DNA from: Bacteroidales bacterium
Lineage (GTDB): Bacteria; Bacteroidota; Bacteroidia; Bacteroidales; UBA1402
Length of the DNA stretch: 64,000 nt
Direction: 5' to 3'
Assembly: GCA_017468435.1 (NCBI GenBank)
Contig: JAFUIP010000004.1
Coordinates: 18,668 to 82,667, forward strand
A program made the position numbers and the translations under genes. Below, piece after piece: positions 21,820 to 49,178 of this stretch (position 1 is the stretch's first letter; every line of letters starts with the position of its first letter). The notes under the pieces are model-generated. The model saw only the letters and a list, made by a program, of their open reading frames with translations, was not told the DNA's origin and ran no database searches.

Positions 21820-21862
21820 TTTTTTAAATATTATTTGATTATTATTTTTTCAAAAAATTGCG

Positions 21863-21870: not shown

Positions 21871-21875
21871 GTGAA

Positions 21876-22478
21876 TTATTCTTGATTATTCAAGCCTTCT
21901 TCCTCGCTATCCATAGGAAAAACACCTTTAATCTTAAAAATTTTATACTTGGTAAGCGATTCGTTCGACTCGAAGCCGTAACCCGTCAAAATCTGGTCTT
22001 CCTGTTGAATGCGGATAAAGGAATCGGAATACACCCGGTGTTGATCTTGATTCCAATACAACAGGTTGGTTTCAAACTGTTCCCCGCTCATATTCTTTAC
22101 CAGCACATTATTCTTCAACTCCCAGAGTTTCAGCTCGGTAAAGTAACGAGCCGTATCGCCTTCCACCACAGATTCCACCTCTAAACTGTCGTTAAAGCGT
22201 TCGAAATAGACCTTGTCAGGAAAGAACCAATAAGGTTCGTCGGCCTGATCGTACACTTTCCACGTCTGTGCCAAGACCTTGTAGCGAATGCGACCCGAAT
22301 CGGAAATGAGCGTGGTCACCGAATCGACTAACATGCCCGGCACCACCTTACGATTCTCGAAATTGGCAATGGTATCGGTCTTTTCTTTTTTGCAAGACGG
22401 ACATACCATAAACAACATAACAGTCGCACTAAAAAGCGCAACTGTTATGGAAGGTTTTTTATGTCTTTTGAAAAACAT
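21876..22478 (-). CDS. lptC: LPS export periplasmic protein LptC
   Basis: 200 aa with an N-terminal anchor, an LptC-like beta-jellyroll pattern (...LLYWNQDQHRVYSDSFIRIQQEDQILTGYGFESN...) and the conserved synteny. Confidence 0.75.
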   Translation of the reverse strand: MFFKRHKKPSITVALFSATVMLFMVCPSCKKEKTDTIANFENRKVVPGMLVDSVTTLISDSGRIRYKVLAQTWKVYDQADEPYWFFPDKVYFERFNDSLEVESVVEGDTARYFTELKLWELKNNVLVKNMSGEQFETNLLYWNQDQHRVYSDSFIRIQQEDQILTGYGFESNESLTKYKIFKIKGVFPMDSEEEGLNNQE

Positions 22479-22479
22479 A

Positions 22480-23838: not shown

Positions 23839-23862
23839 AATACTTCTTTTCTATTAATAGTT

Positions 23863-25128: not shown

Positions 25129-25867
25129 TGTCGTATAATATTCTGTTTAATCCGATTAACACTAAATTTTTGCGCGCAAAGATAGGCTTTTTTATGCGGC
25201 TTTCAAAATAGGATATATCGCCTCCTGTCAAAAAACATGTTAAATTCTCTTCAGATTGTTGATATTGACGAAGATATCCCTCCACTTCGTGCCAAATTCC
25301 TTGCATCACGCCGGCACGGATGGCGCTTTGCGTATCGACGCCCATGGGCAGAAAATCGGCCTGGGCCTCTACCAGGGGAAGTGCAGAGGTTTCTTCATGC
25401 AAGACTTTCAGTCTGAGCCAAATACCGGGAGCTATATTGCCACCTTGGTACACGCCGTCGGCACTCATAAAATCGTAGGTAATGGCCGTTCCCATGTCTA
25501 TAATCAAAGATGCCTTGCCCGGTGCCAAGGTCCATGCTCCCACGGCAGCCGCCAATCGGTCGAGACCAAGCGTGGCCGGACTCTGATAAGCATTGCGGAT
25601 GGGCATCTTCATGTGAAGACCATACGCGAAGAAATGAGGAATGCGCTGACGCAAGGCATCGACAAAAGCCGCATCGGCAGGACCTACAGATGCGTAGATT
25701 CCTGCCTGAGGCTGATATATTTCGAAATATTTGTCGGGAAGCATATCTCCCGAAACCGTCGTTATGACTTCCAAAGGCTCCGCCGTAACATCGGGATGCG
25801 TTTCATCGAGTTCGAAGAAGGCCCATTTACAGGCAGAATTTCCCCTATCTATGACCAAATGTATCAT
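25109..25867 (-). CDS. coaX: Type III pantothenate kinase
   Basis: MIHLVIDRGNSACKWAFF (phosphate-1 loop), GLDRLAAAVGA and LIIDMGTAITYD. The ATG overlaps the upstream GH2 stop (ATGA). Confidence 0.92.
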   Translation of the reverse strand: MIHLVIDRGNSACKWAFFELDETHPDVTAEPLEVITTVSGDMLPDKYFEIYQPQAGIYASVGPADAAFVDALRQRIPHFFAYGLHMKMPIRNAYQSPATLGLDRLAAAVGAWTLAPGKASLIIDMGTAITYDFMSADGVYQGGNIAPGIWLRLKVLHEETSALPLVEAQADFLPMGVDTQSAIRAGVMQGIWHEVEGYLRQYQQSEENLTCFLTGGDISYFESRIKKPIFARKNLVLIGLNRILYDNVQKSL

Positions 25868-28461
25868 TTCTTTTCTCCGAAATCGGCTTGTTGTTGAACC
25901 ACTTCTTCCAAAATTTGGTTACGGTCGAGCGAAGACATGGATGAAGCATTGGCTGTGCCGGAAGCGCTTGAAGCCGAGGCCTCTGAACTTTCGTGCATGT
26001 AGCAGGCCTTCATCGTGGCCGGGATGCTTTCAAATTCCATTTCCGTGGCGGCGGGCGCCATCTGACCTTCCCACAAAACGCGGGCTTTCACCTTGATTTT
26101 TCCGGGCGTGGTGGTAGAACGAATCAGCACGGGAGCCGAACCGAATTCCACGGCACGAGGATTGGCACCGATAGAAGCGTCACCAATGATGACACCCTCG
26201 CCTTCCACTTCGAAGAGAATATTGTCTTTGGCCATGCGACGGACATTTCCGTTGTCGTCGGTCACTTCGGCCACCACCACGATAAAGTCGCTACCATCGG
26301 CAATGAGTTGTTGGTCGGCATGCTCGATATGCAAAGAGAGTTTGGTAGAACGACGGGCTGGCATTTTCTTTTCGCTGCACACCACTTTACCATCTATGAT
26401 ACCTTCGGCCACCACGGTAACGCCTTGCCAATTTTTCTGGAAATAACTCATCTGGCGGTTTTTCCAGAAATCGTAAGCATCTTCGAAGATGACAGGCTCG
26501 TTAGGCAGATAATGCTCGTTGTGCTTCACGGCTTGCACCAAAGTATCGGTGCCGCGCAAAATCAGACGCACCGAGTCGCAGTTGCTGAACACCATGATAT
26601 CGTTGCCGAAATATGGCATGATTTCGTGCGCAATGAATACCATGGGACCGGTCTGCACCAAAGGATGCGTCGCATGGGCCGACACTTGGCTCTTGAACAT
26701 CTGATACACATATTTCTGCTGACGGAAGGCATCGCATTGTCCGCCCCAATAAGGATCGGGATGATAACCGCGCTGATGGTCGAAGGCATGCCATTGGGCA
26801 CCGCCGATGAACTGTTTCTGTCCGTAGAACATTTCTCCATACGAATGAGCCAAAGACATGGCCTGCACACGCATAGGACCTTCGCCCCAGCTACGCGACA
26901 CGCGGTTGTTGTTGTTCTGAGCGTACCAGTCGTCCACCATTTCGCCAAACTCGCGGGTAAAGATACATTGTTCCACTTTTCCCGTATCGGTGGGCCAACC
27001 ATACACCACGCCATAATGTTCGCTCACACCGGCAGAGTGCATATCGGCAACGGCCAGAGGCGCACCGGGATAAGGGAATTCATCCTTGGTGATCTGCAAA
27101 GCATTCAATGAAAAATCTTCCGGGAAACGGGTTTCGTTCAAGATAGGTTCCCACAGCAGAACGGAAGTATGGTTACGGTCGCGACGAATCATTTGCGTCA
27201 CATCGTCCAAGACATATTCGGCAAACTTGGGCGACTTATTCCAATATTGCCAACCAGGCGTGGGCACGATCATGAAAATACCCAATTCGTCGCAAGCGTC
27301 CATCCAGGCAGGGTCCTGAGGATAATGAGCCGAGCGCACGATGGTACAGCCGCCTTCGCGCAGAATCTTGGCATCGCGCCAGTGCTGAGAGTTGGGAAGC
27401 GCATTGCCCACGTAAGCGAAATCCTGATGACGATTGACACCGATAAGCTGCTGATAGGGCTTTCCGTTCAACCAGAAACCGTCTTTGCCTTTGAATTCCA
27501 CCTTGCGGATACCGGCACGCAACATACCACCGTCCAAAGCCTTCTTACCTTGCTTCAAGACCATTTTCACCTGATACAAATAAGGAGATTCGGGCGACCA
27601 CAACTGCGGATTTTTTACGGTAAACGATTGTTTTACTGTCTGATAATGACCGGCTTGCACTTTCACAGCGCTACGCAAAGTCTTGATAGCCTTGCCATCT
27701 TTGTCGCATAGAGAAGTTTCCAGCACCAAGGAACCTGCTTTGGCTGCCTTGTTGGCGATTTCCGTATCCACATAAATGGTAGCTTTCTGTTCTGAAATAT
27801 TGTCGTAATGCAAGAAAACACCGCCACCGGCCACTTCGTGACGTTCCACCACGGCATCGGTGATATATTGTTCGCCTTTGGCAATCATCCAAACATCACG
27901 ATAAATACCGCCATGATACGTGAAATCGAGGGTATATTGAGGCTTTCCGGGAGGATATGTCTTATCGTTAGAATTGTCGGCGCAAAGTGCAATGACACAG
28001 GTATCTCCGGCTTGTACGCCATAATCGTTCAAGCAAACGGCAAATGGAAGATAACCACCGAAATGTTGCAGAATGCTGTCGCCATTGAGATAGAGCGTTG
28101 CCTTTCCCATCACGGCTTCGAAATACACTTGCACGCGTTTTCCTTTCAGAGAAGGATCCACCACAAAATGTTTGCGATACCAGGCCTTTCCCTGATAATT
28201 GCGGCTACCGCTACCTTCGGCGGGAATCAATTGTACGGTATGAGGCACGCTCACCACTTCCCAGGAAGCATCGTCGAAGTCTTTGGCCTGGGCACCGGGC
28301 ACATCGCCGCGGAAGTAATGCCATCCCAAATTGAAATTGTACACATCACGTCCGCTTTCTTCGAGCGGAAACATACCGGCCACCGAATGCTTGGGCTGAT
28401 ACGCCCAGACATTGGCCATGGTCAGAAGCGCCATGAAGGCGAGAGTGAAAATTCTTTTCAT
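25864..28461 (-). CDS. Glycoside hydrolase family 2 (secreted)
   Basis: Signal peptide, GH2 sugar-binding, Ig and TIM-barrel order, acid/base WEPILNETRF and nucleophile-type FTREFGE. An atypical Ser/Ala-rich C-terminal tail (SSEASASSASGTANASSMSS) is present. Confidence 0.85.
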   Translation of the reverse strand: MKRIFTLAFMALLTMANVWAYQPKHSVAGMFPLEESGRDVYNFNLGWHYFRGDVPGAQAKDFDDASWEVVSVPHTVQLIPAEGSGSRNYQGKAWYRKHFVVDPSLKGKRVQVYFEAVMGKATLYLNGDSILQHFGGYLPFAVCLNDYGVQAGDTCVIALCADNSNDKTYPPGKPQYTLDFTYHGGIYRDVWMIAKGEQYITDAVVERHEVAGGGVFLHYDNISEQKATIYVDTEIANKAAKAGSLVLETSLCDKDGKAIKTLRSAVKVQAGHYQTVKQSFTVKNPQLWSPESPYLYQVKMVLKQGKKALDGGMLRAGIRKVEFKGKDGFWLNGKPYQQLIGVNRHQDFAYVGNALPNSQHWRDAKILREGGCTIVRSAHYPQDPAWMDACDELGIFMIVPTPGWQYWNKSPKFAEYVLDDVTQMIRRDRNHTSVLLWEPILNETRFPEDFSLNALQITKDEFPYPGAPLAVADMHSAGVSEHYGVVYGWPTDTGKVEQCIFTREFGEMVDDWYAQNNNNRVSRSWGEGPMRVQAMSLAHSYGEMFYGQKQFIGGAQWHAFDHQRGYHPDPYWGGQCDAFRQQKYVYQMFKSQVSAHATHPLVQTGPMVFIAHEIMPYFGNDIMVFSNCDSVRLILRGTDTLVQAVKHNEHYLPNEPVIFEDAYDFWKNRQMSYFQKNWQGVTVVAEGIIDGKVVCSEKKMPARRSTKLSLHIEHADQQLIADGSDFIVVVAEVTDDNGNVRRMAKDNILFEVEGEGVIIGDASIGANPRAVEFGSAPVLIRSTTTPGKIKVKARVLWEGQMAPAATEMEFESIPATMKACYMHESSEASASSASGTANASSMSSLDRNQILEEVVQQQADFGEKK

Positions 28462-28464
28462 GCT

Positions 28465-30798
28465 TTATTTCTTTTTTGTTTTCGTAATACTTTGTAATTG
28501 ACCCTGATACCACTGGGCTTCCACTACCGTTTGTCCGGGCGCGTGCAGTTTGAAATGCACATCCCAATCCTTGGGCCAAGAAGGACAAATGGCCAAACTG
28601 CCATCGAATTTTTCTTGCAACAACATTTCCTGCAAACCAATCATGGCAGAACCGCCCCAATTATGGTCGGGAGTCCAGTCGAAACCAGGGCCCCAGAAAC
28701 TCGGGAAACGATGCTGCGAATCTTGGAATTTCAAAAGCGTCAGATGCTTGGCATCGTCCGTCAAGCCCAAACAAGCGGCGAAAATATTGTACTGCTTCCA
28801 GCCCACATAAGTGCGGAATTGCTGCACATCCTCGTCGTAAAGATAGGTATTGACAGCTCTGTTTTTATCGGCCGCGGGAGAATCCATGCGATACATGCGC
28901 CAAGGCCAAACAGCGTACAATTGAGGTGCTTCGGTATTGTTGATGCGTTCCCAGGATTCGGCAGGAGCCAACATTTCTTTTCCCTTCTGTGTACGCAACG
29001 GCAAGTCCGGCAACTTCGCCTTGAATGCCTGCCAATGCGCCTTGGCCTCTTCGCTGATGTTTTCCTTGGCAAAGGCTTCGCTCAAGACGTGCAAGGCAGC
29101 CAAGGTAGAAGAAGCGTTTTTTGCCATCTTGTATGTTTCACAAGCCGAACCCGGATAGAAATTCATTTTTCCATTTTCATCGAGTACAGGTTCGCCACGT
29201 TGAAGAGCCAAGTATTCGTAATGTTCTTCGAAGAATCGCAAAGAGCTCTCTATCAAGGGATAATATGCTTCGACATCAATGCCCGCATAACGTTTGGCTT
29301 CCAATATCATAAAGCAGAATTCGAGAACGGTATCCCATTGATATTCAAGCCATTTATTATATTCCATACCAGGATCGAAACCTTCCGGACGCTTCCAGCT
29401 GTATTCACTGGGATTGGGCAAACCGAAATTTTCCATCTGTTCCGTGAAACAAGCTCCTCCATGATGCCAGTAATGACGGCTGCGCCACTCGGTATTATTC
29501 AGCAGATTCTTGTAATAATCGAACTGTGAACGCATCATGTCCACATCGCCGCTCTTCAGCATGGGAAAATAGACAAGACGTTGGTTCTGAGCCGTAAAGG
29601 TTCCCCCGCCCCAATTCCTGAAATCGGGAGAGAAATCGCGTTTATCATTGACAAAACCCGGATCGAAAGTAAACAATCCGCCATTGAACTTGGTGGGATA
29701 AGTGCCATAGGCATTGCAAGCCAGCTGATAGCGGAAAAGTTGATAATTGCGACCCACTTTCCAAGCTTCGTAAGCAGCGGAATCCATCTGATGCACAGGC
29801 GTATAGGGATTAATACAAATATAGCTTCTGTTCCAGAAATCCAACCACCAAGCCAGGTTCTTCTCTTCGTCGGCCTTTTCTTTGACAGAGGATTTCAACT
29901 TTCTGAGCGAACGCTTCCATGATTTTTCTATCTGCTTATCGGAGAGCGAGGTATCGTACTGTTGCGTATGCAAAGCCACATGCAGACGATGATGACGACG
30001 TTTGCGACAAGATTGCAATTGCCATGACTTGTAAGGACTTTGCTGATATTGGCCGCTCAAAGTATCCTTGAAACAGAAACCGCGTCCGTATAGCATCCCT
30101 CCGAAAGTCAGGCCGGCCAAAGGATTATCCAAAGAATCCTTCAGGGATTCCATGCCCTGTTGGGCCACTGTCACATCGAAAATGGTCTCGGCAGGATTCT
30201 GATGACGGAAGAAGACCTTGCCACCACGAGCTTCTATTTGGTCGGCTTTCATTTGCAAACCCTTGGGAGGCGCCCATTTGTAGGAATTGCCGAAGCTCTC
30301 GTTCTTGCGCAAAGTTCGGTCTTCGTGACGCCAAGATTCGTAAGACACTTGCAGTTTGCGGGCCTTTGAAGAATAGGTATCTATGTGAATGACAGGCTTG
30401 AAGACATCGGCCCAAATCAATACTTCCACATAATTGTCGCCCAAACCGGCCTGTACCTGCACGCGACCTTCGGGCAAATGCAAGACTTGCATAAAATCCA
30501 CACTGTCTATGGGCTGATCCAGTTGCAGACGCAGACGTCCCAATTTGAGCATGGTGTTGTTTTCGTCGAAAGTGCCGCTGCGTGAAAAATACACGAGCAA
30601 ATCGCCCTTTTCCACCCAGACATTCATTCCTATATCGCCACCTCCGCAAGGCATTGACTCACTTGAATTTTGACTTTGGGTGTTCCAGACAATATTATAG
30701 CTATCGCCGAAAACGGGTTGCGAATACTCCTCATTTGCTTGCAAAACAAAGGCCGTCAGCAAGAGAAACAAGAGGCTGATATTATTCTTATTTATCAT
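28465..30798 (-). CDS. DUF5703-like / six-hairpin (GH95-like) putative glycoside hydrolase, uncharacterised
   Basis: Signal peptide. The N-terminal block YNIVWNTQSQNSSESMPCGGGDIGMNVWVEKGDLLVYFSRSGTFDENNTMLKLGRLRL matches my memory of DUF5703_N proteins. Confidence 0.65.
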   Translation of the reverse strand: MINKNNISLLFLLLTAFVLQANEEYSQPVFGDSYNIVWNTQSQNSSESMPCGGGDIGMNVWVEKGDLLVYFSRSGTFDENNTMLKLGRLRLQLDQPIDSVDFMQVLHLPEGRVQVQAGLGDNYVEVLIWADVFKPVIHIDTYSSKARKLQVSYESWRHEDRTLRKNESFGNSYKWAPPKGLQMKADQIEARGGKVFFRHQNPAETIFDVTVAQQGMESLKDSLDNPLAGLTFGGMLYGRGFCFKDTLSGQYQQSPYKSWQLQSCRKRRHHRLHVALHTQQYDTSLSDKQIEKSWKRSLRKLKSSVKEKADEEKNLAWWLDFWNRSYICINPYTPVHQMDSAAYEAWKVGRNYQLFRYQLACNAYGTYPTKFNGGLFTFDPGFVNDKRDFSPDFRNWGGGTFTAQNQRLVYFPMLKSGDVDMMRSQFDYYKNLLNNTEWRSRHYWHHGGACFTEQMENFGLPNPSEYSWKRPEGFDPGMEYNKWLEYQWDTVLEFCFMILEAKRYAGIDVEAYYPLIESSLRFFEEHYEYLALQRGEPVLDENGKMNFYPGSACETYKMAKNASSTLAALHVLSEAFAKENISEEAKAHWQAFKAKLPDLPLRTQKGKEMLAPAESWERINNTEAPQLYAVWPWRMYRMDSPAADKNRAVNTYLYDEDVQQFRTYVGWKQYNIFAACLGLTDDAKHLTLLKFQDSQHRFPSFWGPGFDWTPDHNWGGSAMIGLQEMLLQEKFDGSLAICPSWPKDWDVHFKLHAPGQTVVEAQWYQGQLQSITKTKKK

Positions 30799-30810
30799 AA
30801 AAACAAGCTA

Positions 30811-32226
30811 TTAGAAATTTGTTCTGAAAGATGACACCGGCATACCGTTCTGTCCGAAAAGCGAAGCTTCCACGCAATTGCCGAAGGCATAACGTACAGC
30901 CACGGGCTTTTTTACCTCAGGCGCAGAGACTTCCACCAAATTGGTATTCCAACGAATATGTGCCTTGGCTGGATAGAACACACTGTCGGGACCGGCTATT
31001 TCGAAACCCGAAGGAGCGCCCAATGTCGCATCCAGGCCGCGCGGAGAACGATTGAACTTCACAATGGCCATGCTGTCTTGGAATTCCACCGATTCGTATC
31101 GCGGACTCTGCACATTGACCTTGCCATGTCCGTAGGTATTGGCCAAAGCCTGCATGGCCAAGCGTTCACCGGGAGTCTGTTTGTCGGAGGGATGAATGCC
31201 GCTGAGCATGCCAGCATCCAGAAGCACCACCATAGCTGCGTTGGGAATCATATCTTCCGCCTTCATCTGAGCCTCTCGCAACAAGGCAGAGTTAATGGGA
31301 TCCTGTCCTTTGGGCGTGATGATGGCATAATCGTAAGGCGCAATCTGACAATAATAGAAAGGAAATTCGCCGATGTTCCAATGTTGACGCCAAGAAGCCA
31401 CCATTGCCTGCATCATATCTGCGTATGTATGAGCACGATCGTAGTTGGATTCGCCCTGGTACCAAATGACACCTCTCATGGCCATTCCGAAGAAGGGATT
31501 CACCATAGCGTTATATAAAGCGGTGGGGATATTGCTGTGCATCTTGGTTTCGGGCGTCGGCATCTTCACTTCCTTGAAATTGGCCAAGGAAGCATCGTCC
31601 ATCCAGGCCTCGATGCAGGTACCGCCCCAGGCGCTGACAACCAAACCCACCGGGCAGTCCAAAGTCTGACGCAAGAAACGACCGAAATAGTAAGCCGTGG
31701 CCGAAAAATCGTGTACCGTAGCGGGCTGAGCTTCAGCCCAAGTACCCACCACATCGTCCATAGGCGTGTAAGAAACCTTGCGCTTCACCGTCATCAGACG
31801 AAGCTGGTCGTCGGCAGAAAGCATGATGTCGCGCGTGCCGTTGGTGATGGATTGTGCGGGATAACCCTTCATGGGTTGCTCCATGTTCGACTGTCCGGAA
31901 CAGAACCAGACTTCACCAATCAAAACATTGTCGAGTGTTATATTTTCTTTACCGGCTGACAGGGTGATGCTGTAAGGGCCACCGGCCACAGGCGTTTCGA
32001 GTTTTACCTTCCAAGCACCGTGTTCGTCGGCTTGCACCTTATAGGTGGCATTGTTCCAGGAGGTCTTTATTTTCAGCGCTTGATTCGCATCGGCCCATCC
32101 CCAGAAAGAAGCCTGGGTCTGTTGCTGCAAAACCATGTTATCTGAGAAAAAAGCCGGCAAGCGAATTTCGGCCTGCATGGCACAAACGATGGACAAACAG
32201 CCCATCAATGAAATGAGTTTTTTCAT
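30811..32226 (-). CDS. SASA-type (sialate O-acetylesterase-like) carbohydrate esterase
   Basis: IRLPAFFSDNMVLQQ...FWGWA...GPYSITL...VLIGEVWFCSGQSNME (GQSN Ser nucleophile block). The start overlaps the upstream stop (TAATG). Confidence 0.85.
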   Translation of the reverse strand: MKKLISLMGCLSIVCAMQAEIRLPAFFSDNMVLQQQTQASFWGWADANQALKIKTSWNNATYKVQADEHGAWKVKLETPVAGGPYSITLSAGKENITLDNVLIGEVWFCSGQSNMEQPMKGYPAQSITNGTRDIMLSADDQLRLMTVKRKVSYTPMDDVVGTWAEAQPATVHDFSATAYYFGRFLRQTLDCPVGLVVSAWGGTCIEAWMDDASLANFKEVKMPTPETKMHSNIPTALYNAMVNPFFGMAMRGVIWYQGESNYDRAHTYADMMQAMVASWRQHWNIGEFPFYYCQIAPYDYAIITPKGQDPINSALLREAQMKAEDMIPNAAMVVLLDAGMLSGIHPSDKQTPGERLAMQALANTYGHGKVNVQSPRYESVEFQDSMAIVKFNRSPRGLDATLGAPSGFEIAGPDSVFYPAKAHIRWNTNLVEVSAPEVKKPVAVRYAFGNCVEASLFGQNGMPVSSFRTNF

Positions 32227-35612: not shown

Positions 35613-35618
35613 ACGATA

Positions 35619-40036
<4,418 letters not shown>

Positions 40037-40045
40037 ATATTTACA

Positions 40046-42115
40046 TTATCTGTCGATAGGCATCCATACGGTCATTTCGCTGTGACCACGGTTGCCGAAT
40101 GCATAATAAGGAATCAAAGTAATCTGCACTTTCTGCTTGCCGCTTTGAAGTTCACGATACAGTTCGTCGCCACCCCAAGCGTCTTCGGTAGAGTAATTGG
40201 CCACACCGGTGAGCGCCATCATAGGAGCGCCATCGATTTCCACTTCCTTGGGTTCCAGCTTGATATTGGCAGGAATCATCACGTTGTCGATCTTCTTGCC
40301 TTCCAAGTCGGTAGATTCCAAGCAATATACCACCGGACCACGCATCACGGCCACCTGGTTGCGGGTTTCTTCCAAAAGAGGATTGGAAGCCATCAATTTC
40401 ACCTTCATTTCAAGGTTCAATTGCAGGATGTCGCCCTTCTTCCAAACGCGACGAACTTCGGCATATCCATTATTATTGCTGGTTTCAACAGCTTCTCCAT
40501 TCACCAAGATGCTGTAATTATCGCACCAGCCGGGAATATGCATGAACATTGACATTTCCTTCTTACGAGGAGCTTTCTGTACTTCGATGGTCACATCGCC
40601 GTTCCAAGGATATGCGGAGATTTGGTTCAACTGGATGACAGAACCGTCTTTCAGCTTGGTATTCAAGGTGCTACCTCCGTAGATATTGCACCAAACGCCT
40701 TCGTCAGACAAAGCATAAGCATAGTTCTGGATTTCACAAATGGTACGAACCGTGTTGGGAGGACAGCAGAAGCAGCTGATATAATGGGTTCTTTCCTTGG
40801 GCCAACGAAGCACATAAGGAAATTCATCAGACAAACGCAAAGGATTGGTATAGAAATACTTGGTACCATCCAATGAAATACCTGACAGCAAACTGTTGTA
40901 AGCCACTTTTTCTACGATGTCGTTGTACTTGCCATCGCCGGTAATTTGGAACATACGCCAGTTGAACAACAAGTTACCAATGTTGGCACAGGTTTCGTTG
41001 TGGGCAGTTGAGTTGGGCAATTGGAAAGAACGTCCGTAAGATTGATGAACCTTCTGGATAGAATCGGGCGTGTAGTTGGTTCCGTCGGGAGAAGTTCCAT
41101 CGTACAAAGCGCCGCAACCACCGGTGATGTACATCTTGTGGTTCACGATGTCAGACCAGATAGATTCCAGGTTGGGCCAGAGTGTCATATCGCCGGTTTC
41201 AGCAAATACGTCGGCCACGCCGGCATACAGATAATTGGCGCGCACGGCATGACCCATGGCATTCATTTGTTCGCGGAAAGGATCACGGTCTTGGTTGTCG
41301 TCGGTACCGTTTTCCACCATACCGCGAATATCGATGAGGTTCTTGGCCAATTCCAAATAGCGAGGATCGCCTGTGGTACGGTACATTTCCACTACGCCCA
41401 TATAGTGTGAAGGGCAGATGGCGTTACGAGCCAATTCAGCGGTAGCGGTCTTGTAGAAATTGTACAAGAAGTCGGTAGCCTTGATAGCAACGTCCAAAAG
41501 CGTACGCTTGCCGGTAGCGCGATAATGCACACAGGCAGCCATCATCAGGTGACCGTGGTTGTAGGTTTCGAAATTCAGACGATTGTTGAAAGCGCCGCCT
41601 TCGGCCGTACCGGTGGCCGTTCCCACCAAGCCTTGGTTGTTGCTCAAAGTGGCTTGCTTATTACGTTCGGGAATGATAACCTGCGTATGCATATAACCAT
41701 CTTCGCGCTGAGCTTTGGTAATGGTTTCGATGATTTCGTCCATCAAGGCATCGAGCTTGGGATCTTTGGTAACGGCATACACAGCAGCCATACTTTCAAA
41801 CCATTTGAAAAAGTCGCCATCGTGGAAAGCCGGACCATGATGTTCGCCTTCGCATTTACCGGCAGCGATTTCCAAGTTTCTGTAAGCATGACACAAATCG
41901 GGATTATCCATGATATGCCACATATTCATGACCATGGTATCCTTACATACTTCAAATCGATCGCCCCAAAATCCGTCGGTCCAAGCCACAGAAGAGACAT
42001 TGGCATTCCAGATTTTAGCATGTTTACTGTTGTAGGTATTCACCATACCTTTGTCTTGCGCCGAGGCAGTCAGAGCTGCGCAAACAAGCGAGAGAATCAA
42101 TACACTTTTCTTCAT
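40046..42115 (-). CDS. GH127 family (beta-L-arabinofuranosidase / aceric-acid hydrolase type; DUF1680)
   Basis: HGHLMMAACVHYRATGK and the Cys-rich catalytic/Zn block YISCFCCPPNTVRT. The start is taken at MKKSVLIL (ATG 42113-42115). Confidence 0.85.
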   Translation of the reverse strand: MKKSVLILSLVCAALTASAQDKGMVNTYNSKHAKIWNANVSSVAWTDGFWGDRFEVCKDTMVMNMWHIMDNPDLCHAYRNLEIAAGKCEGEHHGPAFHDGDFFKWFESMAAVYAVTKDPKLDALMDEIIETITKAQREDGYMHTQVIIPERNKQATLSNNQGLVGTATGTAEGGAFNNRLNFETYNHGHLMMAACVHYRATGKRTLLDVAIKATDFLYNFYKTATAELARNAICPSHYMGVVEMYRTTGDPRYLELAKNLIDIRGMVENGTDDNQDRDPFREQMNAMGHAVRANYLYAGVADVFAETGDMTLWPNLESIWSDIVNHKMYITGGCGALYDGTSPDGTNYTPDSIQKVHQSYGRSFQLPNSTAHNETCANIGNLLFNWRMFQITGDGKYNDIVEKVAYNSLLSGISLDGTKYFYTNPLRLSDEFPYVLRWPKERTHYISCFCCPPNTVRTICEIQNYAYALSDEGVWCNIYGGSTLNTKLKDGSVIQLNQISAYPWNGDVTIEVQKAPRKKEMSMFMHIPGWCDNYSILVNGEAVETSNNNGYAEVRRVWKKGDILQLNLEMKVKLMASNPLLEETRNQVAVMRGPVVYCLESTDLEGKKIDNVMIPANIKLEPKEVEIDGAPMMALTGVANYSTEDAWGGDELYRELQSGKQKVQITLIPYYAFGNRGHSEMTVWMPIDR

Positions 42116-42138
42116 ATTCAATATATAGTTTATATTAT

Positions 42139-44913
42139 TTACCATTCAATTACATACTTACCTGAAGGAACAGATATAAGGCTTTGGCCGGCACTCTTTT
42201 TCAAACACTCAGCCCCTGCCCTTGCGTAATTCTTACCATTGATGGTGAGCGCGTTCAGTTGAGAAGTAGGCAGATATATCTCGGCAGAAGTATTGGCAGG
42301 GATGGTGATACTCCATGTGAAATGTTCAGCCTGTTTTTTCCAAGAACTTTCTACCTTGCCGTAAGGCGTCTGATAATCGGCTTCCACAAAATCCAGATCC
42401 TTGATATCGAAAGCCGGCTTCATGATAATCTTCTTGAAAGCCACCTCTTTTTCGTCGGTCTTGATACCGGCCAGGTCTTCGTAACACCAAATGAGCAAGT
42501 CGCCCAACTGCATCACATGATTGCGAGAATTCATCTTAGGATTGGCCTTGTCACCATTCCAAAGTTCCCAAATGGTGGTAGCGCCCTGGCTTACCATATA
42601 ACCGAAGCTGGGATAATCGGTGGTGGTAGCCAAAAGATAAGCAATGTCGCCATAACCACGATGCGTCAATTCGCGCCACAACCATTGGTTTCCGATGATA
42701 CCGCTGGCCATGGTGCCCTTGTATTCATCCATAATCTTGGCGCGCACACTTTCACAAACCGCAGGAACGTATTGCTCAGGCACGAAGTCCATGGCAAGCG
42801 CCAAAATATTGGCAGTGACAGTATTATTGCTGTAGTTCTTGCTTTCTTCATTGAAGAAATTACGATGGAAGGCCGCCTTCAGACCGGCGGCATATTCCGC
42901 ATAGCCTTCGGCCCATTGAGGCTCGTTCAACAAATCGGAGAACTTTATCATCAACTGATACAAAGCATAGAAATAAGCCGTGGCAATAAGATGCTTGTCG
43001 GTGATTCTGTCGGGAGCTGTCGAGTGGATGATTTCCAAAGATTCGGTAGGCATACACCAGTCGCCATATTTATCGGCCGTCATCAAGCCGGTGTTTTCGT
43101 CGTAATAATAATCGCGCATATAGTCCATGAACTTCTTCAGACCCTCTATATGCTTGGCAATGGGAGCGATATCTCCGTACTGACGATACAACATATCGCA
43201 AGTGGTAAACATGGCTGCCGGCCAGGTGATATCGTCTGAATAATAGTTCCAATAGGCAGGAGCCACATCGGGAATGGCACCGTCCCAACGTTGAGCATCG
43301 CGGATATCGTCCATCCATTTGGCGTAGAAAGCAGCATTATTGAAGAGGAAGCTTTCACCGTAAGAGCCCATCACGCGGTCGCCCAACCAAGGCATACGTT
43401 CGTTACGCTGCGGACAATCCACCGGCATTCCTTTGTAGTTGCCACGAATTCCCCAATAAGCATTCGTATAGGTTGCATTCAGAATATCGGAAGAAGACTT
43501 GAAGTGACCCATGTCTTCCATTTCGTCGCAAACAAACTCACCCACAAAGTCTTCCAACTGAGGCACACCGGGATAATTGGTAATTTCCACGAATTGGAAA
43601 CCATGCGTCACAAAACGGGGAGCCCAGGTTTCGCCTTCGGCAGCGCCCTTCAAGGTGTATTTGTCGGTAACCAAAGCATCGCGCAAGTTAGCCATGCTCA
43701 GGCTTCCGTCGGGCAGGATAGCTTCGGCAAAACGCAATTTTACTTCGTGTCCGCGCTTACCCTTCACATTCATTTTGATCCAACCAGTCATGTTCAAGCC
43801 CATGTCCATGATGTAGGTATTGGCATTGAGTTTGGTGATGGATTTAGGCTTGATTTGCGTCATCACCTTCATATTGGCACAGGGTTGAGCCACCAGCGGT
43901 GCAATGGGAATGGTGACACGCTGAGCCGGCATCCAAGAAGCATCGGCCTTGAAACCGGGCAATGTCCAGCCTTCGAATTCCTTGCGGGCATCGTATTCTT
44001 CACCGTCAAATTCATTGTTGGAAATAATGGGACCACGGGCGCTCAACTGCCAGGTCTGATCGCTCTGCAAGGACTGGGTTCTGCCGTCGGCATAAGTGAT
44101 ATTGAGACGCATACGCAATTTCGGATAGCCGAAGCGATTCCACTTATACGTCTTGTAATTCTGACGCATGGCATAATAACGACCATTACCCAAAATTACA
44201 CCTACGGCATTAGCGCCTTCTTGCAGATAATCCGTTACATCGAAAGTATTGTACATGATATGACGACGATAATCGGTAGGAACAGGTGCCATCACCTGGT
44301 CGCCTACCTTTTCGCCATTCAGCCAAAGTTCGTACAAACCCAAACCGGCAATGTGAAGCACGGCTTGCTTTATTTCAGCCTGACGACAAACAAAATCCTT
44401 GCGCAGATAACGGGCCGACAAACGGGCATGCGTAGATTCATCGTCCCAAGGGAAAGGATTGTCGTAACCGATCCAACGCGATGAGCCCCAATCTTTTTCG
44501 GTTCTCAAAGCTGTCAAAAAATATGCCATCGGACTTTCGATATATTCTTGGCACTTGTTGGTCCAAACTTGCACCTTCCAATAATAGTAGGTGCCTGTTT
44601 CCAAGTCGGGACCGGCGTAAGGCACCAAAACCGATTGAGAGGAAGCCCGTTTTCCGGAATCCCAGATATCGGCTTCGCCCTTGGCTAATTTTTCTTCAGA
44701 ACTTGCCACCAAAATACGATAGGCCTCTTGCTTGACATCCTGCAAATCGCTCTGCAACTGCCAGCTCAGACGTTGTTGTTCCAAGCCCACACCAATGGGA
44801 TTCACACGATGTTCGCAGGTGAGTTGCTGCACCTTAAAAGCATCTGTTGAAGCTTGTTTGCCACACGAAAAAAGCAAAAGCGTCAATGCTACCAATGAAA
44901 AAAATTTCTTCAT
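42139..44913 (-). CDS. GH78 alpha-L-rhamnosidase (lipoprotein)
   Basis: Lipobox LLFSC and the GH78 six-hairpin block VDCPQRNERMPWLGD. Confidence 0.85.
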   Translation of the reverse strand: MKKFFSLVALTLLLFSCGKQASTDAFKVQQLTCEHRVNPIGVGLEQQRLSWQLQSDLQDVKQEAYRILVASSEEKLAKGEADIWDSGKRASSQSVLVPYAGPDLETGTYYYWKVQVWTNKCQEYIESPMAYFLTALRTEKDWGSSRWIGYDNPFPWDDESTHARLSARYLRKDFVCRQAEIKQAVLHIAGLGLYELWLNGEKVGDQVMAPVPTDYRRHIMYNTFDVTDYLQEGANAVGVILGNGRYYAMRQNYKTYKWNRFGYPKLRMRLNITYADGRTQSLQSDQTWQLSARGPIISNNEFDGEEYDARKEFEGWTLPGFKADASWMPAQRVTIPIAPLVAQPCANMKVMTQIKPKSITKLNANTYIMDMGLNMTGWIKMNVKGKRGHEVKLRFAEAILPDGSLSMANLRDALVTDKYTLKGAAEGETWAPRFVTHGFQFVEITNYPGVPQLEDFVGEFVCDEMEDMGHFKSSSDILNATYTNAYWGIRGNYKGMPVDCPQRNERMPWLGDRVMGSYGESFLFNNAAFYAKWMDDIRDAQRWDGAIPDVAPAYWNYYSDDITWPAAMFTTCDMLYRQYGDIAPIAKHIEGLKKFMDYMRDYYYDENTGLMTADKYGDWCMPTESLEIIHSTAPDRITDKHLIATAYFYALYQLMIKFSDLLNEPQWAEGYAEYAAGLKAAFHRNFFNEESKNYSNNTVTANILALAMDFVPEQYVPAVCESVRAKIMDEYKGTMASGIIGNQWLWRELTHRGYGDIAYLLATTTDYPSFGYMVSQGATTIWELWNGDKANPKMNSRNHVMQLGDLLIWCYEDLAGIKTDEKEVAFKKIIMKPAFDIKDLDFVEADYQTPYGKVESSWKKQAEHFTWSITIPANTSAEIYLPTSQLNALTINGKNYARAGAECLKKSAGQSLISVPSGKYVIEW

Positions 44914-44931
44914 AATTCTGATATGAGGTTA

Positions 44932-46350
44932 TTATTTACTTCTGATTACCAATACTCTGTCATCGTTTTCACGGGCGGGCGTATATGAGAAATCAGCCTT
45001 ATCGCCTTGGTATTCACCGATGTAAGTATATTCACCATTGGTAGTGTCGTACCACCAGGCCTTTTTGGTCTTACCTTTTATTTTTGTCAAATCTATAGAC
45101 ATGGGAACAGCAGCGTAATTATACACGAGAATGTAATCTTCGCCACGACAAGCACGCAAATGCTGATGATGCGTACCGTTTTCGCCCAAAATAACCGACT
45201 GATCGGGAACTCTTTCATAATAAGGGAAATCCAGGATAAGCTTCTTCAGATATTGCATCTGCTGGAAACCGGGATCGTTCAAAGCATCCTTCCAGAATTT
45301 CAGACAACCGTAAGCACCGCGTTTTTCGCCACCGGGATGCATCTGCATGATGGCAGAATTACCGTAGGTATGACCGAAAGCACCGGCAAATACCGACCAA
45401 TAAGCGTAACGACGCACTTCGTGAGCCTGCCAGAGCGGCAAGGTATAATCGTGCAAACCATAAGGAATGCCTTCATAACTGGGTTCACCATCGATAACGG
45501 GTTTCATGGGCTTATAGCTGCGAGCCAATTCCACATAACGCCAGTTGTCTTCTTCGCAAGAGTCGGGAAGCAACTCCGGACGTTGAGGATTCTTCTTGCT
45601 CAGACTCATGCCATAATTGCGGTGTCCGCTCTGGAACATATTGAAATCCAGCCATTCAGCATCGTGAAACCAAGTAGCCGACAAGGTACGTCCGAAGGGA
45701 TGGAAAGTCATCAGGTGATTCTTATCGACAGCTTTGATGCTGCGGGCCAGGGTTTCCCATTCTTCAGTCTTCACGTCGCCGTACATATCGCCACCTATGA
45801 ACCAAATGATATTGGGATGATCTTTATAACGTTCGCCAAGGAAGGTTCCATAGGCCTTAGCCTCTTCAACCGACATCAAACCTTTCTTCACCAAACCGCC
45901 CCAAATGCAGACCATACCGATATAGATACCTTTTTCGGCAGCTGTTTCGATGATATAATCCATATGATCCCAATAACCGTACGAACTGTCGCGGTTGATC
46001 TTCGTAAAGTCGTAGCCTTCAGGCATGGACAATTGTCCGTAGTAATTGCGGGCAGGAACACCATTGATGGTTTGCACTTGTACCACATTGAATCCGGCCT
46101 GACGACAAGCTTCCAAATAGAATTCTGCATCTTCACGGTTCAAGCGTTCGGGCAGGAGCCAACCGGTTTCTCCCAACCAGAAGAAAGGCTCACCGTTTTC
46201 GTGCTGCAAGAAACAGCCCGTTTCGTCCACTTGCAATTTTCCATTGTCCCAAGGATATTTCGCTTCCTTTTGCGTGCAGGCCGTCAGCATCATCAGCGAC
46301 AGCAGCAAGGCTGAAATAAATCTCATATAACTATTATTTAAATTTTGCAT
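44932..46350 (-). CDS. GH140-like (DUF4038, apiosidase-type) glycoside hydrolase (lipoprotein)
   Basis: GEPFFWLGETGWLLPERLNREDAEFYLEACRQAGFNVVQVQ is the DUF4038/GH140 N-terminal TIM-barrel block. Lipobox MLTAC. An alternative start at MRFISALL (46326) would remove the 13-nt overlap. Confidence 0.8.
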   Translation of the reverse strand: MQNLNNSYMRFISALLLSLMMLTACTQKEAKYPWDNGKLQVDETGCFLQHENGEPFFWLGETGWLLPERLNREDAEFYLEACRQAGFNVVQVQTINGVPARNYYGQLSMPEGYDFTKINRDSSYGYWDHMDYIIETAAEKGIYIGMVCIWGGLVKKGLMSVEEAKAYGTFLGERYKDHPNIIWFIGGDMYGDVKTEEWETLARSIKAVDKNHLMTFHPFGRTLSATWFHDAEWLDFNMFQSGHRNYGMSLSKKNPQRPELLPDSCEEDNWRYVELARSYKPMKPVIDGEPSYEGIPYGLHDYTLPLWQAHEVRRYAYWSVFAGAFGHTYGNSAIMQMHPGGEKRGAYGCLKFWKDALNDPGFQQMQYLKKLILDFPYYERVPDQSVILGENGTHHQHLRACRGEDYILVYNYAAVPMSIDLTKIKGKTKKAWWYDTTNGEYTYIGEYQGDKADFSYTPARENDDRVLVIRSK

Positions 46351-49076
46351 TTGAAAGTATATTTACCCGATTTCACTTCGTACTGAGGTTTGCATTGTCC
46401 GGGCATATAGATCTTGGCTTCGCTGTTGACGGGAATTTCCACCTTCAGCACAAATTCGTCATCCTTCACTTCCCATTGCACGGACACTTCTCCGTACAAG
46501 GTTTTGGTGGCACAATTCACATAAGTCATGTCGCCCAAAACTTCAGGACGGATAATCAAGTATTTACCGCCGGGACGATTATCATCGATCTGGATACCGC
46601 CCAAGCTGCGGAAGAACCATTCGTCGATGGCACCCAACATGAAGTGATTCCATGAAGCTCCCTGACGAGGATCCCATTGTTCGGTCAGCGTGGTGGCGCC
46701 AAACTTTTTCTGGAAGCCGTAGCCGGGCACTTCTTCGTGATTGTGCATCTTATACATATAGTCGTTGTAGCCATTCTGGGCCAGAAATTGGAACATATAG
46801 CGATTGCCCACCTCGCCGGTACTCAGGCGGAAACCCTTGTTTTCGATACCGGCCAACAAATGAGCTATGGCCGTGTCCCTATGTTCGGGAGCCACCATAT
46901 TCATGTACAAAGGCATGGCATACGAAGCCTGACTTCCTGTACCGTAAATGCAACTATCTTCTTTGAAATAAGTATCGTGGAATGCCTTGTTCACTTCCTC
47001 GCCCAAACGCGTATAATAGGCTGCATCTTCCTCATAACCAAGCATCTTGGCAGCACGAACCATCAATTGTGTATTCTGGTAGAGATGAGCCGTTCCAGAA
47101 AGAGGCACGGGCGTGTTCTGCGCAAATCCCGGACGTTTCGGACCGAAATCGTACCAATCGCCCAGACCTTGCATCACAATATGGTTTTCAGAGGTTTTTT
47201 CCAAATAATCCGTGTAAGCCTTCATCATGGGATAATGCTTGCGGATCATACTGTCGTCGCCGTAGTAATGGTAATACATGAAGGGCAAAATGACAGAGGC
47301 GCTACCCCATTCCGGACAATCGCTCCACAAACGAGAAAATTCCACAAAAGTAGGCGCCGTGGAGGGAACCATGCCTTCTGCCGTCTGGCTGTCGTTCATA
47401 TCTTGCAAAATTTTAGGCCAGAAGCGCGTCATGTCGTAATTGTAGAGAATACCGGGGCCATTCAAGTGATCTTGCTCCAGCCAACCCAATTTTTCACGAT
47501 GCGGACAATCGGTGAAAACAGCCTGCATATTGCTTCGGATGGCCATCTGAATAAGCTGATGCGTATTGTTGAAGATTTCGTTGGACGATTCGAAAACGCC
47601 GTAATTTTCTACCGAGTTGTGTACAAAACAAGATTTCAAATCCTTGATAACAGGAAGATCTTCCGGATTGGGTTCGCCCTTGACCACGGCACCTTCCACG
47701 CGGATATAACGGAAACCATAATAGGCAAAACGCGGGCGATAGGTCTCAGGCTTGTCGCTCTTGAGTGTATAATCGTAGTAATGAGGCTTTCCACTTTGGT
47801 TCTGACTCACCACGCTGTCCTTGCCCAAAGATTCGCCCACCCAGATACGCACCTTGTCACCGGCTTTTCCTTTCAAGGTAATTTCGGGGAAACCGGCCAG
47901 ATTTTGTCCCATATCGAAGATATAAGCCATGGTTTCGGGGAACTTCTTATCGGCAGGCACTTTCTTATACCAATAATCCTGAACATCATAGGTGCGCATC
48001 ACTTTTACAGCCGGTGCCCATTGAGCCTGCAATTCACCCTTGGGAGCTTCTTGCAAAACCACCGGATGCCAAGCGCTTTCGTCAAATCCGTAAGTATTCC
48101 AGCCTTCCTGTTCCAAATTGGCATCGTAATCTTCGCCACCATACAAACTATTGAAAGTGAGCGGGCTGAAATCGTATTTCCAAGAAGCATCCGAACGAAT
48201 GTCTTCCTGAGAGCCATCGGCATACACCAAATGAAGCTTAAAAAACAAAGTAGGAGGTCCGAAGCTCAACAACAACTTACGATAGCGACCGCCTTGTTCG
48301 TTGAAGAAACCATTGCCCAAAAGTACGCCCACGGCATTATTCTTCTTGATAGCCTTGGTAACATCGTACACATTGTAGTAAACAGTTTTGTCATAATCGC
48401 TCCAAAGCGGTGCAAACTCGCTGTCACCAATTTTCTTTCCGTTGATGGAAAGTTCGTAATGACCCAGACCCACCACATAAGCAGTGGCTTCCACCACATT
48501 TTTGTCTGTTGTGAAATCCTTGCGCAGATAAATGCTCTTTTTCGACAGCGGATGGGTGTTGTTCCAAGCATCTTTCATGGCTTGGTTGCGGTTGACCGTG
48601 TTACCTTCGTAATGACGGCCTTCGGGCAAACGGCTCTCGCTTCGGGTAATGGCGCCAATCCATTGTGCATCCAACCAGTCCTTATCAGGTGCCACGGCAA
48701 ATGAAGACTCTTTCCAAGGCGATTTTTTGCCTTTCTGATTCCATACGCGCAAACGCCAATAATACTTTTGCGCAGGCTGTAAAGCAGGGCCCGTATAGTC
48801 CAGCAACTGACTTTGGTTGCTCTGCACTTCGGATGTTTCCCAAATACGCTTGTTGCGACTATCGTACAACTCGATCTGATAAGCCGATTGCATACAGGCT
48901 TGCTTATGCGAAGACAATTGCCATGAGAAGCGAATCTGATCGGGATCGACGGCCAGCGCTTCTTCTTCGTAGTTACAGGTCATCTTTTCCACCTTGATAG
49001 GCGCACAAGAAAAGAAGGACAAAGTCATCAACAAGCAGGCTGCTCTAAGCCAAAACGCAAAATTTTTCATAATCAT
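46338..49076 (-). CDS. GH78 alpha-L-rhamnosidase (lipoprotein), second paralogue
   Basis: Lipobox SFFSC and the block FTDCPHREKLGWLEQDHLNGPG. Confidence 0.85.
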   Translation of the reverse strand: MIMKNFAFWLRAACLLMTLSFFSCAPIKVEKMTCNYEEEALAVDPDQIRFSWQLSSHKQACMQSAYQIELYDSRNKRIWETSEVQSNQSQLLDYTGPALQPAQKYYWRLRVWNQKGKKSPWKESSFAVAPDKDWLDAQWIGAITRSESRLPEGRHYEGNTVNRNQAMKDAWNNTHPLSKKSIYLRKDFTTDKNVVEATAYVVGLGHYELSINGKKIGDSEFAPLWSDYDKTVYYNVYDVTKAIKKNNAVGVLLGNGFFNEQGGRYRKLLLSFGPPTLFFKLHLVYADGSQEDIRSDASWKYDFSPLTFNSLYGGEDYDANLEQEGWNTYGFDESAWHPVVLQEAPKGELQAQWAPAVKVMRTYDVQDYWYKKVPADKKFPETMAYIFDMGQNLAGFPEITLKGKAGDKVRIWVGESLGKDSVVSQNQSGKPHYYDYTLKSDKPETYRPRFAYYGFRYIRVEGAVVKGEPNPEDLPVIKDLKSCFVHNSVENYGVFESSNEIFNNTHQLIQMAIRSNMQAVFTDCPHREKLGWLEQDHLNGPGILYNYDMTRFWPKILQDMNDSQTAEGMVPSTAPTFVEFSRLWSDCPEWGSASVILPFMYYHYYGDDSMIRKHYPMMKAYTDYLEKTSENHIVMQGLGDWYDFGPKRPGFAQNTPVPLSGTAHLYQNTQLMVRAAKMLGYEEDAAYYTRLGEEVNKAFHDTYFKEDSCIYGTGSQASYAMPLYMNMVAPEHRDTAIAHLLAGIENKGFRLSTGEVGNRYMFQFLAQNGYNDYMYKMHNHEEVPGYGFQKKFGATTLTEQWDPRQGASWNHFMLGAIDEWFFRSLGGIQIDDNRPGGKYLIIRPEVLGDMTYVNCATKTLYGEVSVQWEVKDDEFVLKVEIPVNSEAKIYMPGQCKPQYEVKSGKYTFKCKI

Positions 49077-49111
49077 ATACTACAGTATGGGTTAGTTTTC
49101 AATAAAATTTC

Positions 49112-49119
49112 CAAAGATA
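49112..49119 (-). promoter_or_regulatory. -7 promoter box (TATCTTTG) heading the GH operon
   Basis: Exact TAnnTTTG match immediately after the terminator U-tract, about 36 nt upstream of ATG 49076. Confidence 0.4.
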
Positions 49120-49121
49120 AT

Positions 49122-49153
49122 AAAAAAGCGGCTGACAATTACTTGTCAGCCGC
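49122..49153 (-). terminator. Strong intrinsic terminator after the fasciclin gene
   Basis: Minus strand reads GCGGCTGACAA-GTAA-TTGTCAGCCGC-TTTTTTATT: a perfect 11-bp stem, a tetraloop and a U-tract. Confidence 0.8.
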
Positions 49154-49178
49154 CTAAATTTTGGATGTTTATTTATTT

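Follow-up and report, generated by a model that had tools for sequence, protein, structure and literature searches.

The window examined here is a 64-kb stretch (64,000 nucleotides) of contig JAFUIP010000004.1 from a Bacteroidales bacterium. ORF calling over its whole length reveals, at 25864-49076, a block of ten consecutive minus-strand open reading frames (ORFs): ten co-located and co-oriented genes for carbohydrate-active enzymes (CAZymes), all from families associated with rhamnogalacturonan-II (RG-II), the most complex plant glycan known. Families were called with Pfam, and the calls were refined by searches against solved structures (PDB) and NCBIfam. In the direction of transcription the genes are the following, with glycoside hydrolase families abbreviated GH and BT numbers referring to Bacteroides thetaiotaomicron:

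46338..49076, minus strand: GH78a, Rha78A-type alpha-L-rhamnosidase, lipoprotein, candidate BT1019 counterpart (Pfam GH78, five Rha78A domains; PDB 6I60/3W5M)
44932..46350, minus strand: GH140 beta-D-apiosidase, BT1012-type, lipoprotein (Pfam Apiosidase, E 2e-113; PDB 3KZS/5MSY, E 1e-192)
42139..44913, minus strand: GH78b, second Rha78A-type rhamnosidase, lipoprotein (Pfam GH78; PDB 6I60, 3W5M)
40046..42145, minus strand: GH127, BT1003-type (aceric-acid hydrolase type; Pfam, E 1e-114; PDB 5MQO, E 3e-300)
38873..40036, minus strand: stand-alone GH137 beta-L-arabinofuranosidase, five-bladed propeller, lipoprotein (PDB 5MT2/5MUJ, the BT0996 N-terminus, E 2e-157)
35619..38864, minus strand: LacZ-type GH2, counterpart of BT0993 (chain-B beta-galactosidase) by position and sequence (Pfam, NCBIfam)
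32226..35612, minus strand: GH106 alpha-L-rhamnosidase, BT0986-type (Pfam, E 6e-151; PDB 5MQM/5MWK, 1152 bits)
30811..32226, minus strand: SASA-fold acetylesterase in the position of BT0985, carbohydrate esterase family CE20 (Pfam SASA; PDB 9H4U, E 1e-88, and 7KMM, E 2e-71)
28465..30798, minus strand: GH139 2-O-methyl-alpha-L-fucosidase, BT0984-type (Pfam DUF5703_N, E 2e-103; PDB 9HYQ, E 2e-256)
25864..28461, minus strand: GH2b, a GH2 with a C5 domain, in the position of BT0983 (GH2_6 alpha-L-arabinopyranosidase; Pfam), whose stop overlaps the coaX start (ATGA)

Every family named for these genes in an earlier, sequence-only reading is backed by Pfam, and its "beta-propeller hydrolase" and DUF5703-like gene were borne out and could be sharpened to GH137 and GH139. 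The block contains the RG-II-specific families GH137, GH139 and GH140, together with a BT1003-type GH127 and a BT0986-type GH106. In five proteins the best solved-structure match is an RG-II enzyme of B. thetaiotaomicron (BT1012, BT1003, the N-terminus of BT0996, BT0986 and BT0984), which upholds the RG-II side-chain signature that the earlier reading had proposed.

Some of these assignments deserve comment. The GH127 protein, whose probable start is at 42115 (689 aa), matches HypBA1-type arabinofuranosidases at E 1e-75 only, against 3e-300 for BT1003 (5MQO), and a HypBA1-type enzyme is ruled out on this basis. The GH137 protein has a weak GH130-like beta-propeller match in Pfam, and its 387 aa align to positions 14-367 only of the 1400-position BT0996-type model NF049877 of NCBIfam. 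It stands alone in the clade to which the window belongs; in nearly all the other Bacteroidales loci compared (L011-L086) GH137 forms the N-terminal part of a larger GH137-GH2 protein (1270-1550 aa). The LacZ-type GH2 is 57% identical to a GH2 encoded three genes from the BT0996 orthologue in Bacteroides faecis (L020). The two structures matched by the SASA esterase, 9H4U and 7KMM, are large carbohydrate esterases, of which 7KMM is, we assume, a CE20 member. For GH139, the alignment with 9HYQ covers residues 33-769, and the match to 9HMB, an RG-II-inactive soil homologue, reaches E 1.5e-69; chain length and score indicate that 9HYQ rather than 9HMB is BT0984. BT0984 is the founding enzyme of the GH139 family, and the soil homologue, from a Verrucomicrobium, is inactive on RG-II (PMC12282258). 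GH78a and GH78b are 30% identical; GH78a co-occurs with chain-B genes in the loci L154/L166, and by synteny alone the two are candidates for BT1019 and BT1013, respectively. Homologues of GH2b (53-60%) lie among RG-II genes in 67 of 80 metagenome loci, that is, wherever the flank suffices; in the remaining 13 the GH2b match alone is visible.

In B. thetaiotaomicron, side chain B of RG-II is handled by BT0996-GH137 (an arabinofuranosidase), BT1019-GH78, BT0986-GH106, the BT0985-CE20 esterase, BT0983-GH2_6 (an arabinopyranosidase), BT0984-GH139, BT0993-GH2, BT1003-GH127, BT1001-GH78 and BT1012-GH140 (bioRxiv 10.64898/2026.03.13.711244). The block holds counterparts for nine of these ten chain-B activities, and its tenth gene is another GH78. 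Moreover, its last four genes, GH106-esterase-GH139-GH2, reproduce exactly the order BT0986-0985-0984-0983. The gene set is essentially the chain-B pathway, which is narrower than the general stripping of RG-II side chains suggested by the sequence-only reading. Enzymes for chain A (GH95, GH138, GH141 and the GH2 glucuronidase half of BT0996), for chain D (GH143/GH142) and for the backbone (PL1, GH28) are absent from the 64-kb window.

The spacing of the genes is tight. Taking the longest-ORF starts, the gaps are -13, +18, -7, +9, +8, +6, -1, +12 and +3 nt; if GH127 starts at its second ATG, as called by the gene caller in identical metagenome contigs (689 aa), one gap becomes +23 nt, and the range of -13 to +23 nt given earlier for the ten ORFs is reproduced. 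Two features mark the upstream boundary:

49126..49155, minus strand: intrinsic-terminator hairpin of the upstream fasciclin gene (13-bp stem, then a T-run)
49112..49119, minus strand: TATCTTTG, a Bacteroidetes-type -7 promoter box (TAnnTTTG), 43 nt 5' of the first ATG

The boundary proposed before, a terminator and a TAnnTTTG box, could thus be located, and both parts are conserved: the hairpin is kept in relatives, with compensatory changes in its stem, and the TATCTTTG box is retained in relatives at 85-90%. Across the region as a whole, TAnnTTTG is about as frequent as chance predicts (15 occurrences against 12.4 expected), and a sigma-70-type promoter scan is uninformative for Bacteroidota. 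In a terminator scan, neither the interior of the block nor the junction with coaX scored above chance. The tight spacing and the lack of such a signal are consistent with the ten genes forming a single operon.

Inspection by eye of the N-termini found a signal-peptide-like hydrophobic region in ten out of ten, and a lipobox Cys in four (GH78a, FFSC; GH140, LTAC; GH78b, LFSC; GH137, LSSC), so that the signal peptide or lipobox claimed for every product is indeed seen in all. An acidic stretch after the lipobox Cys is a mark of surface-exported Bacteroides lipoproteins; none of the four lipoproteins, GH78a, GH140, GH78b and GH137, has one. The ten enzymes are probably periplasmic or periplasm-facing lipoproteins, and the word "secreted", used for them earlier, is better replaced by "exported to the periplasm".

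Downstream, the operon runs into a string of housekeeping genes that begins as follows:

25109..25867, minus strand: coaX, type III pantothenate kinase (Pfam), with a 4-nt overlap with GH2b
21876..25128, minus strand: bamG, a TPR protein gene and lptC, an envelope string given for context (NCBIfam BamG NF053685, E 1e-98; Pfam LptC)

As assembled from 19684-25867 and from relatives L167-L171, the string comprises coaX, bamG, the gene for a 452-aa TPR protein, lptC, a SurA-like peptidyl-prolyl isomerase gene, rlmN, DUF4837, pdxA and a sigma-54 activator gene. Its order is kept down to 59% CoaX identity, and a 50% relative keeps most of it, without the TPR and DUF4837 genes. Four nucleotides (ATGA) are shared by the stop of GH2b and the start of coaX, both in the window and in L167, the 81% relative; in the other relatives the two genes are 14-65 nt apart. 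No TAnnTTTG box is present in the 3.9 kb between 29823 and the coaX start, and one with a -33 TTTG sits 56 nt 5' of bamG; with the motif at chance frequency overall, these positions carry little weight. Most simply read, the glycosidase promoter also drives coaX, which is probably carried on the same transcript as the operon; if so, at least basal constitutive transcription is implied.

The arrangement recurs in many assemblies. The identical GH137 protein was found in 140 blocks of the collection, of which six representative contigs (ENA, JGI, NCBI) show the same order. Operon order is also kept in relatives with GH137 identities of 90, 85, 69 and 65%, and in relatives with CoaX identities of 81, 75, 67 and 61% the genes for GH106, esterase, GH139 and GH2b lead straight into coaX-bamG-TPR-lptC-surA-rlmN-DUF4837-pdxA. 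In the relative with a CoaX identity of 59% (L171), esterase-GH139-GH2b stand alone before coaX (2631-10207), preceded by a divergent LPP20-domain gene; this three-gene unit may be the most ancient portion of the junction, or what is left after a loss of the other genes. In the 50% relative, maf and other housekeeping genes precede coaX. One variation inside the operon was noted in the 65% relative L174, where a Peptidase_C1_2 gene (8574-9965) is inserted between GH127 and GH137.

The upstream side is less direct than the sequence-only reading supposed. It had placed the operon between pepD and coaX-lptC, which is correct for coaX; on the pepD side two lipoprotein genes intervene:

49179-51200, minus strand: fasciclin-domain lipoprotein, with an acidic stretch (C-LDSDD) after the lipobox; conserved upstream neighbour in the clade
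51315-52754, minus strand: beta-helix lipoprotein, between pepD and the operon

The longest ORF of the beta-helix gene (51315-52904) shares 151 nt with pepD (52754-54202) and runs across the terminator of that gene (52710-52675). Translation almost certainly begins at the internal Met at 52754, ahead of a lipoprotein signal (MRVFCRICILVISIALVAVSC). The beta-helix protein ends in a C-terminal choice-of-anchor Q domain. We considered it as a surface RG-II binder resembling BT1030/BT1026 and rejected this, as it is of uniform length (about 475 aa) across Bacteroidales and lies beside pepD in a housekeeping context (Dysgonomonas). The beta-helix gene is best grouped with pepD, since the two stand side by side in the Dysgonomonas genome in surroundings free of glycan genes. 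On the upstream side, L172 (a 67-70% relative) has the order pepD, beta-helix, fasciclin, GH78a, and the fasciclin gene is likewise upstream in L007, L008 and L010. Among about 150 RG-II loci from other lineages no fasciclin homologue was found; it is confined to the loci of this clade, and a role as a general RG-II component is unsupported, though it may have one particular to the clade.

Within the species, the fasciclin gene itself exists in two divergent forms, one in L001, L005 and L006, the other in L002-L004 (compared over the first ~860 nt): the C-terminal 286 aa are ~70% identical to the window in one case and 99-100% in the other. On contigs with either form, the ten glycosidase genes are 98-100% identical. 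Together with the C-LDSDD stretch, the two forms suggest surface exposure and either diversifying selection or allele exchange.

Transporters and regulators were sought with Pfam and by ORF length. Neither SusC (a TonB-dependent transporter) nor SusD is encoded among the ten genes or on the flanks within the 64-kb window, and the flanking ORFs include no hybrid two-component system (HTCS), no extracytoplasmic function (ECF) sigma/anti-sigma pair, no SusR and no AraC/GntR regulator. The Pfam matches of the flanks are to housekeeping proteins only: pepD, Lon, LptF/G, TGT, DAHP synthase, RNase G, MutY, an ABC iron-type transporter, RlmN, a SurA-like chaperone, LptC, TPR, BamG and CoaX. As, in addition, no ORF of at least 900 aa lies outside the block, the window lacks SusC, SusD, HTCS, ECF/anti-sigma, AraC/GntR, GH28 and PL1, as had been claimed. 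The SusC/SusD pair is also absent from the relatives' versions of the locus, where a sensor was looked for as well and not found, so the absence is conserved and not due to assembly loss. The only nearby regulator in relatives is the sigma-54 activator of the housekeeping string, ~9.5 kb 3' of coaX; by synteny, its counterpart in the window would be 15087-16340.

How does this compare with known RG-II loci? The polysaccharide utilization locus (PUL) closest in content is PUL1 of B. thetaiotaomicron (BT0977-BT1030; PMC3243724; bioRxiv 10.64898/2026.03.13.711244). The families are the same, the five best solved-structure matches belong to this system, and operon order follows descending BT number where it can be checked, except for the GH140/GH78b pair and with the GH78 genes placed tentatively. 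The export signals on all products are consistent with the periplasmic exo-degradation of imported RG-II: in B. thetaiotaomicron, RG-II is imported whole and its enzymes are periplasmic. In contrast to PUL1, the operon holds the chain-B part only, possibly with a chain-C rhamnosidase; its genes form one tight same-strand unit running into coaX, its GH137 is not fused to a GH2, and it lacks SusC/SusD pairs, an HTCS (BT0981 type), BT1030-type beta-helix surface glycan-binding proteins, PL1, GH28, GH95, GH138, GH141, GH143/142 and a BT1001-type GH78.

Separation of enzymes from transport and sensing has precedents. PUL1 carries the HTCS BT0981, and two other RG-II-induced PULs of B. thetaiotaomicron are without a regulator; the orphan susCD pair BT1682/83 of the same species can import RG-II; and Phocaeicola vulgatus has RG-II-co-regulated clusters made of CAZymes only (BVU_2642-2648, BVU_1983-1985). 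These cases show that the genes for RG-II use may be scattered: enzymes without transporter, a transporter without enzymes and loci with no regulator of their own work together in trans. However, the P. vulgatus clusters are small and not described as spanning one whole side chain, and fusion to a housekeeping operon is not reported for them. Flavobacterial RG-II PULs, such as the Fjoh_4106 region of Flavobacterium johnsoniae, resemble the operon in running uninterrupted on one strand without an HTCS; they differ in having an AraC-like regulator first, SusC/SusD and nearly all RG-II families apart from GH2_6, where the operon has no AraC-like regulator, no SusC/SusD and a narrower enzyme set. 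An RG-II enzyme cluster without transporter and regulator is therefore not new in principle. What sets the operon apart from known RG-II loci is that it is limited to one side chain, that its GH137 is unfused and that its junction with a string of essential genes is conserved.

We consider it reasonably probable that the operon is a periplasmic chain-B RG-II enzyme module whose import and regulation depend on genes at other places in the genome. Under this reading, whole RG-II or large fragments of it would be imported by a SusC/SusD-type system encoded elsewhere, and the ten exported enzymes (glycosidases and one acetylesterase) would dismantle side chain B in the periplasm, removing beta-L-arabinofuranose, two alpha-L-rhamnose residues, alpha-L-arabinopyranose, 2-O-methyl-alpha-L-fucose, beta-D-galactose, aceric acid and acetyl groups and cutting the apiose link to the backbone. 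Transcription would start from the TAnnTTTG-type promoter just 3' of the fasciclin terminator and probably continue across the 4-nt GH2-coaX overlap into coaX; induction, if any, would depend on a regulator encoded elsewhere. The sequences themselves establish which genes are present and their families, the export signals, the lack of transporter and regulator genes within 64 kb and the conserved layout in a clade; the periplasmic location, the substrate, the service in trans and the co-transcription with coaX we infer. Of the two alternatives put forward by the sequence-only reading, it is the battery served in trans that we favour, and a different apiose- or rhamnose-rich glycan is disfavoured. 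Expression may, as that reading also suggested, be constitutive, for which the 4-nt overlap with coaX offers a degree of indirect support.

Several points count against the reading of a chain-B module served in trans. Neither GH78 matches BT1001 (3CIH) at E<=1e-10, and the 736-aa GH78 in the BT1001 position of B. faecis L020 is without a counterpart in the operon. As there is no BT1001-type GH78, the step at the rhamnose-alpha1,3-apiose (Rha-Api) bond is left uncovered, and a ten-for-ten match to the chain-B list of B. thetaiotaomicron was rejected for this reason; one of the Rha78A-type enzymes may cover the step, as a candidate role only. The set may also not be purely chain B, since GH78b resembles the BT1013 position: GH140-GH78b adjacency, with GH78b downstream, is found in 56 of 80 metagenome loci and in several genome loci. 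The pairing parallels BT1012-BT1013, and it is with BT1013 that breakdown of chain C starts. The esterase and GH2b are candidate orthologues of BT0985 and BT0983, respectively, by position and family rather than by direct sequence comparison. Finally, the reading presupposes a partner SusCD locus and the other RG-II enzymes elsewhere in the genome; a scan of genome contigs for the organism's other RG-II genes and SusC/SusD returned relatives at <=90% only, and a search of metagenomes with GH2b yielded, apart from a single short contig of a close relative, homologues at 53-60%.

A candidate for the Rha-Api step can nevertheless be named. GH140 and GH78b, separate genes 18 nt apart in the window, are fused in relatives into single ORFs of 1371 aa (L008) and 1403 aa (L174), at 3793-7908 in L008/L009 and at 2174-6385 in L174, where the called gene has both domain sets. 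The action of the apiosidase must precede cleavage of the Rha-Api disaccharide (bioRxiv 10.64898/2026.03.13.711244). Because GH78b is fused to GH140 and the apiosidase acts first, GH78b is a candidate Rha-Api enzyme, non-orthologous to BT1001.

Four other explanations were weighed. One accepts the same function and differs on regulation: the block may have replaced the upstream part of the coaX operon, so that coaX now depends on glycosidase transcripts and expression is essentially constitutive, with a steady basal level of enzyme and no sensor. The junction itself argues for this, with its 4-nt overlap in the window and in L167 (14-65 nt gaps in other relatives), 3.9 kb upstream of coaX free of TAnnTTTG boxes and no terminator-like site where the two genes meet, as does the lack of a regulator gene in the window. 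In the 50% relative, coaX follows maf and housekeeping genes with a similarly short gap, which points to a gene that is normally internal to an operon. However, the motif scans perform at chance level and a non-consensus promoter could lie in the 3'-terminal part of GH2b, the operon promoter could be controlled by a regulator acting in trans, and the genome may encode a pantothenate kinase besides coaX. We regard such coupled, sensor-less expression as possible, though on balance unlikely. More doubtful is a stand-alone scavenger module, in which an organism without a full RG-II system would eat chain-B oligosaccharides released by other gut bacteria. The limitation of the gene set to chain B and shared steps fits such a diet, as do the separation of GH137 from the chain-A glucuronidase, the 59% relative that keeps only esterase-GH139-GH2b beside coaX, and the secretion of the chain-B octasaccharide CDRO_B2 by Bacteroides cellulosilyticus WH2 (bioRxiv 10.64898/2026.03.13.711244). 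Yet such oligosaccharides would still have to cross the outer membrane through a transporter, and the window encodes none; B. thetaiotaomicron takes up detached side chains poorly and is not induced by them; and GH140 cuts the apiose-galacturonic acid link, which implies a substrate still attached to the backbone.

The remaining two concern the substrate and the assembly. The target could be another apiose- or rhamnose-rich glycan, such as apiogalacturonan or a polysaccharide of algae or bacteria, given that backbone enzymes are absent, that two GH78 enzymes have no assigned linkage specificity and that the soil Verrucomicrobium homologue of GH139 is inactive on RG-II. We hold this to be very unlikely, because the sugars targeted by GH139, by the BT1003-type GH127 and by GH137 are reported only for RG-II chain B. 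In addition, GH139 matches the active BT0984 far better (E 2e-256) than it does the inactive homologue (E 1.5e-69), GH127 is of the BT1003 type, the best solved-structure match of GH137, GH140 and GH106 is in each case an RG-II enzyme of B. thetaiotaomicron, and the four-gene order is that of BT0986-BT0983. As for an assembly or binning artefact, by which SusC/SusD and a sensor were lost or mis-joined, its probability is negligible: it is refuted by identical junctions in independent assemblies (ENA, JGI, NCBI, Logan) and in lineages down to 61% CoaX identity.

The locus indicates that the chain-B pathway can form a compact, self-contained transcription unit, apart from transport, sensing and the pathways for other side chains, and this detached arrangement is stable in a clade of uncultured animal-gut Bacteroidales. 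What is known of RG-II breakdown comes essentially from one organism. The resulting model of its degradation is unchanged, and what we describe is a tidy rearrangement of a known system. In practice, loci of this kind will escape PUL predictors that demand a SusC/SusD pair. The GH140-GH78 fusions and the absent BT1001-type enzyme point to a candidate non-orthologous Rha-Api enzyme, and the coupling to coaX makes it possible to test whether a glycan operon can pass transcription on to essential genes. A bolder proposal, which we put forward as speculation and think improbable, is that the clade has sorted its RG-II degradome into side-chain operons, the chain-B one having been welded to coaX-bamG-lptC, and lives as a constitutive, sensor-less cross-feeding specialist on chain-B fragments from primary degraders.

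Two observations were made outside the clade. In many human-gut metagenome contigs (among L088-L165), the closest homologues of GH2b (55-60%) lie in a five-gene unit (for example L117, 57-12514) that encodes a 430-aa protein, a putative GH95-like protein of ~818 aa (from its N-terminal motif), GH140, a GH78 of ~1280 aa and the GH2; it is followed by unrelated restriction-modification or housekeeping genes. The unit is a further compact RG-II sub-cluster whose downstream side is without adjacent SusC/SusD. The other observation concerns L016, L056 and L084, metagenome-assembled genomes titled "Staphylococcus sp." (one on a 2.6-Mb scaffold) and "Acutalibacteraceae bacterium", which carry Bacteroidales-type RG-II loci (GH127, GH137-GH2, GH2, GH106); their labels are probably wrong or their bins contaminated.

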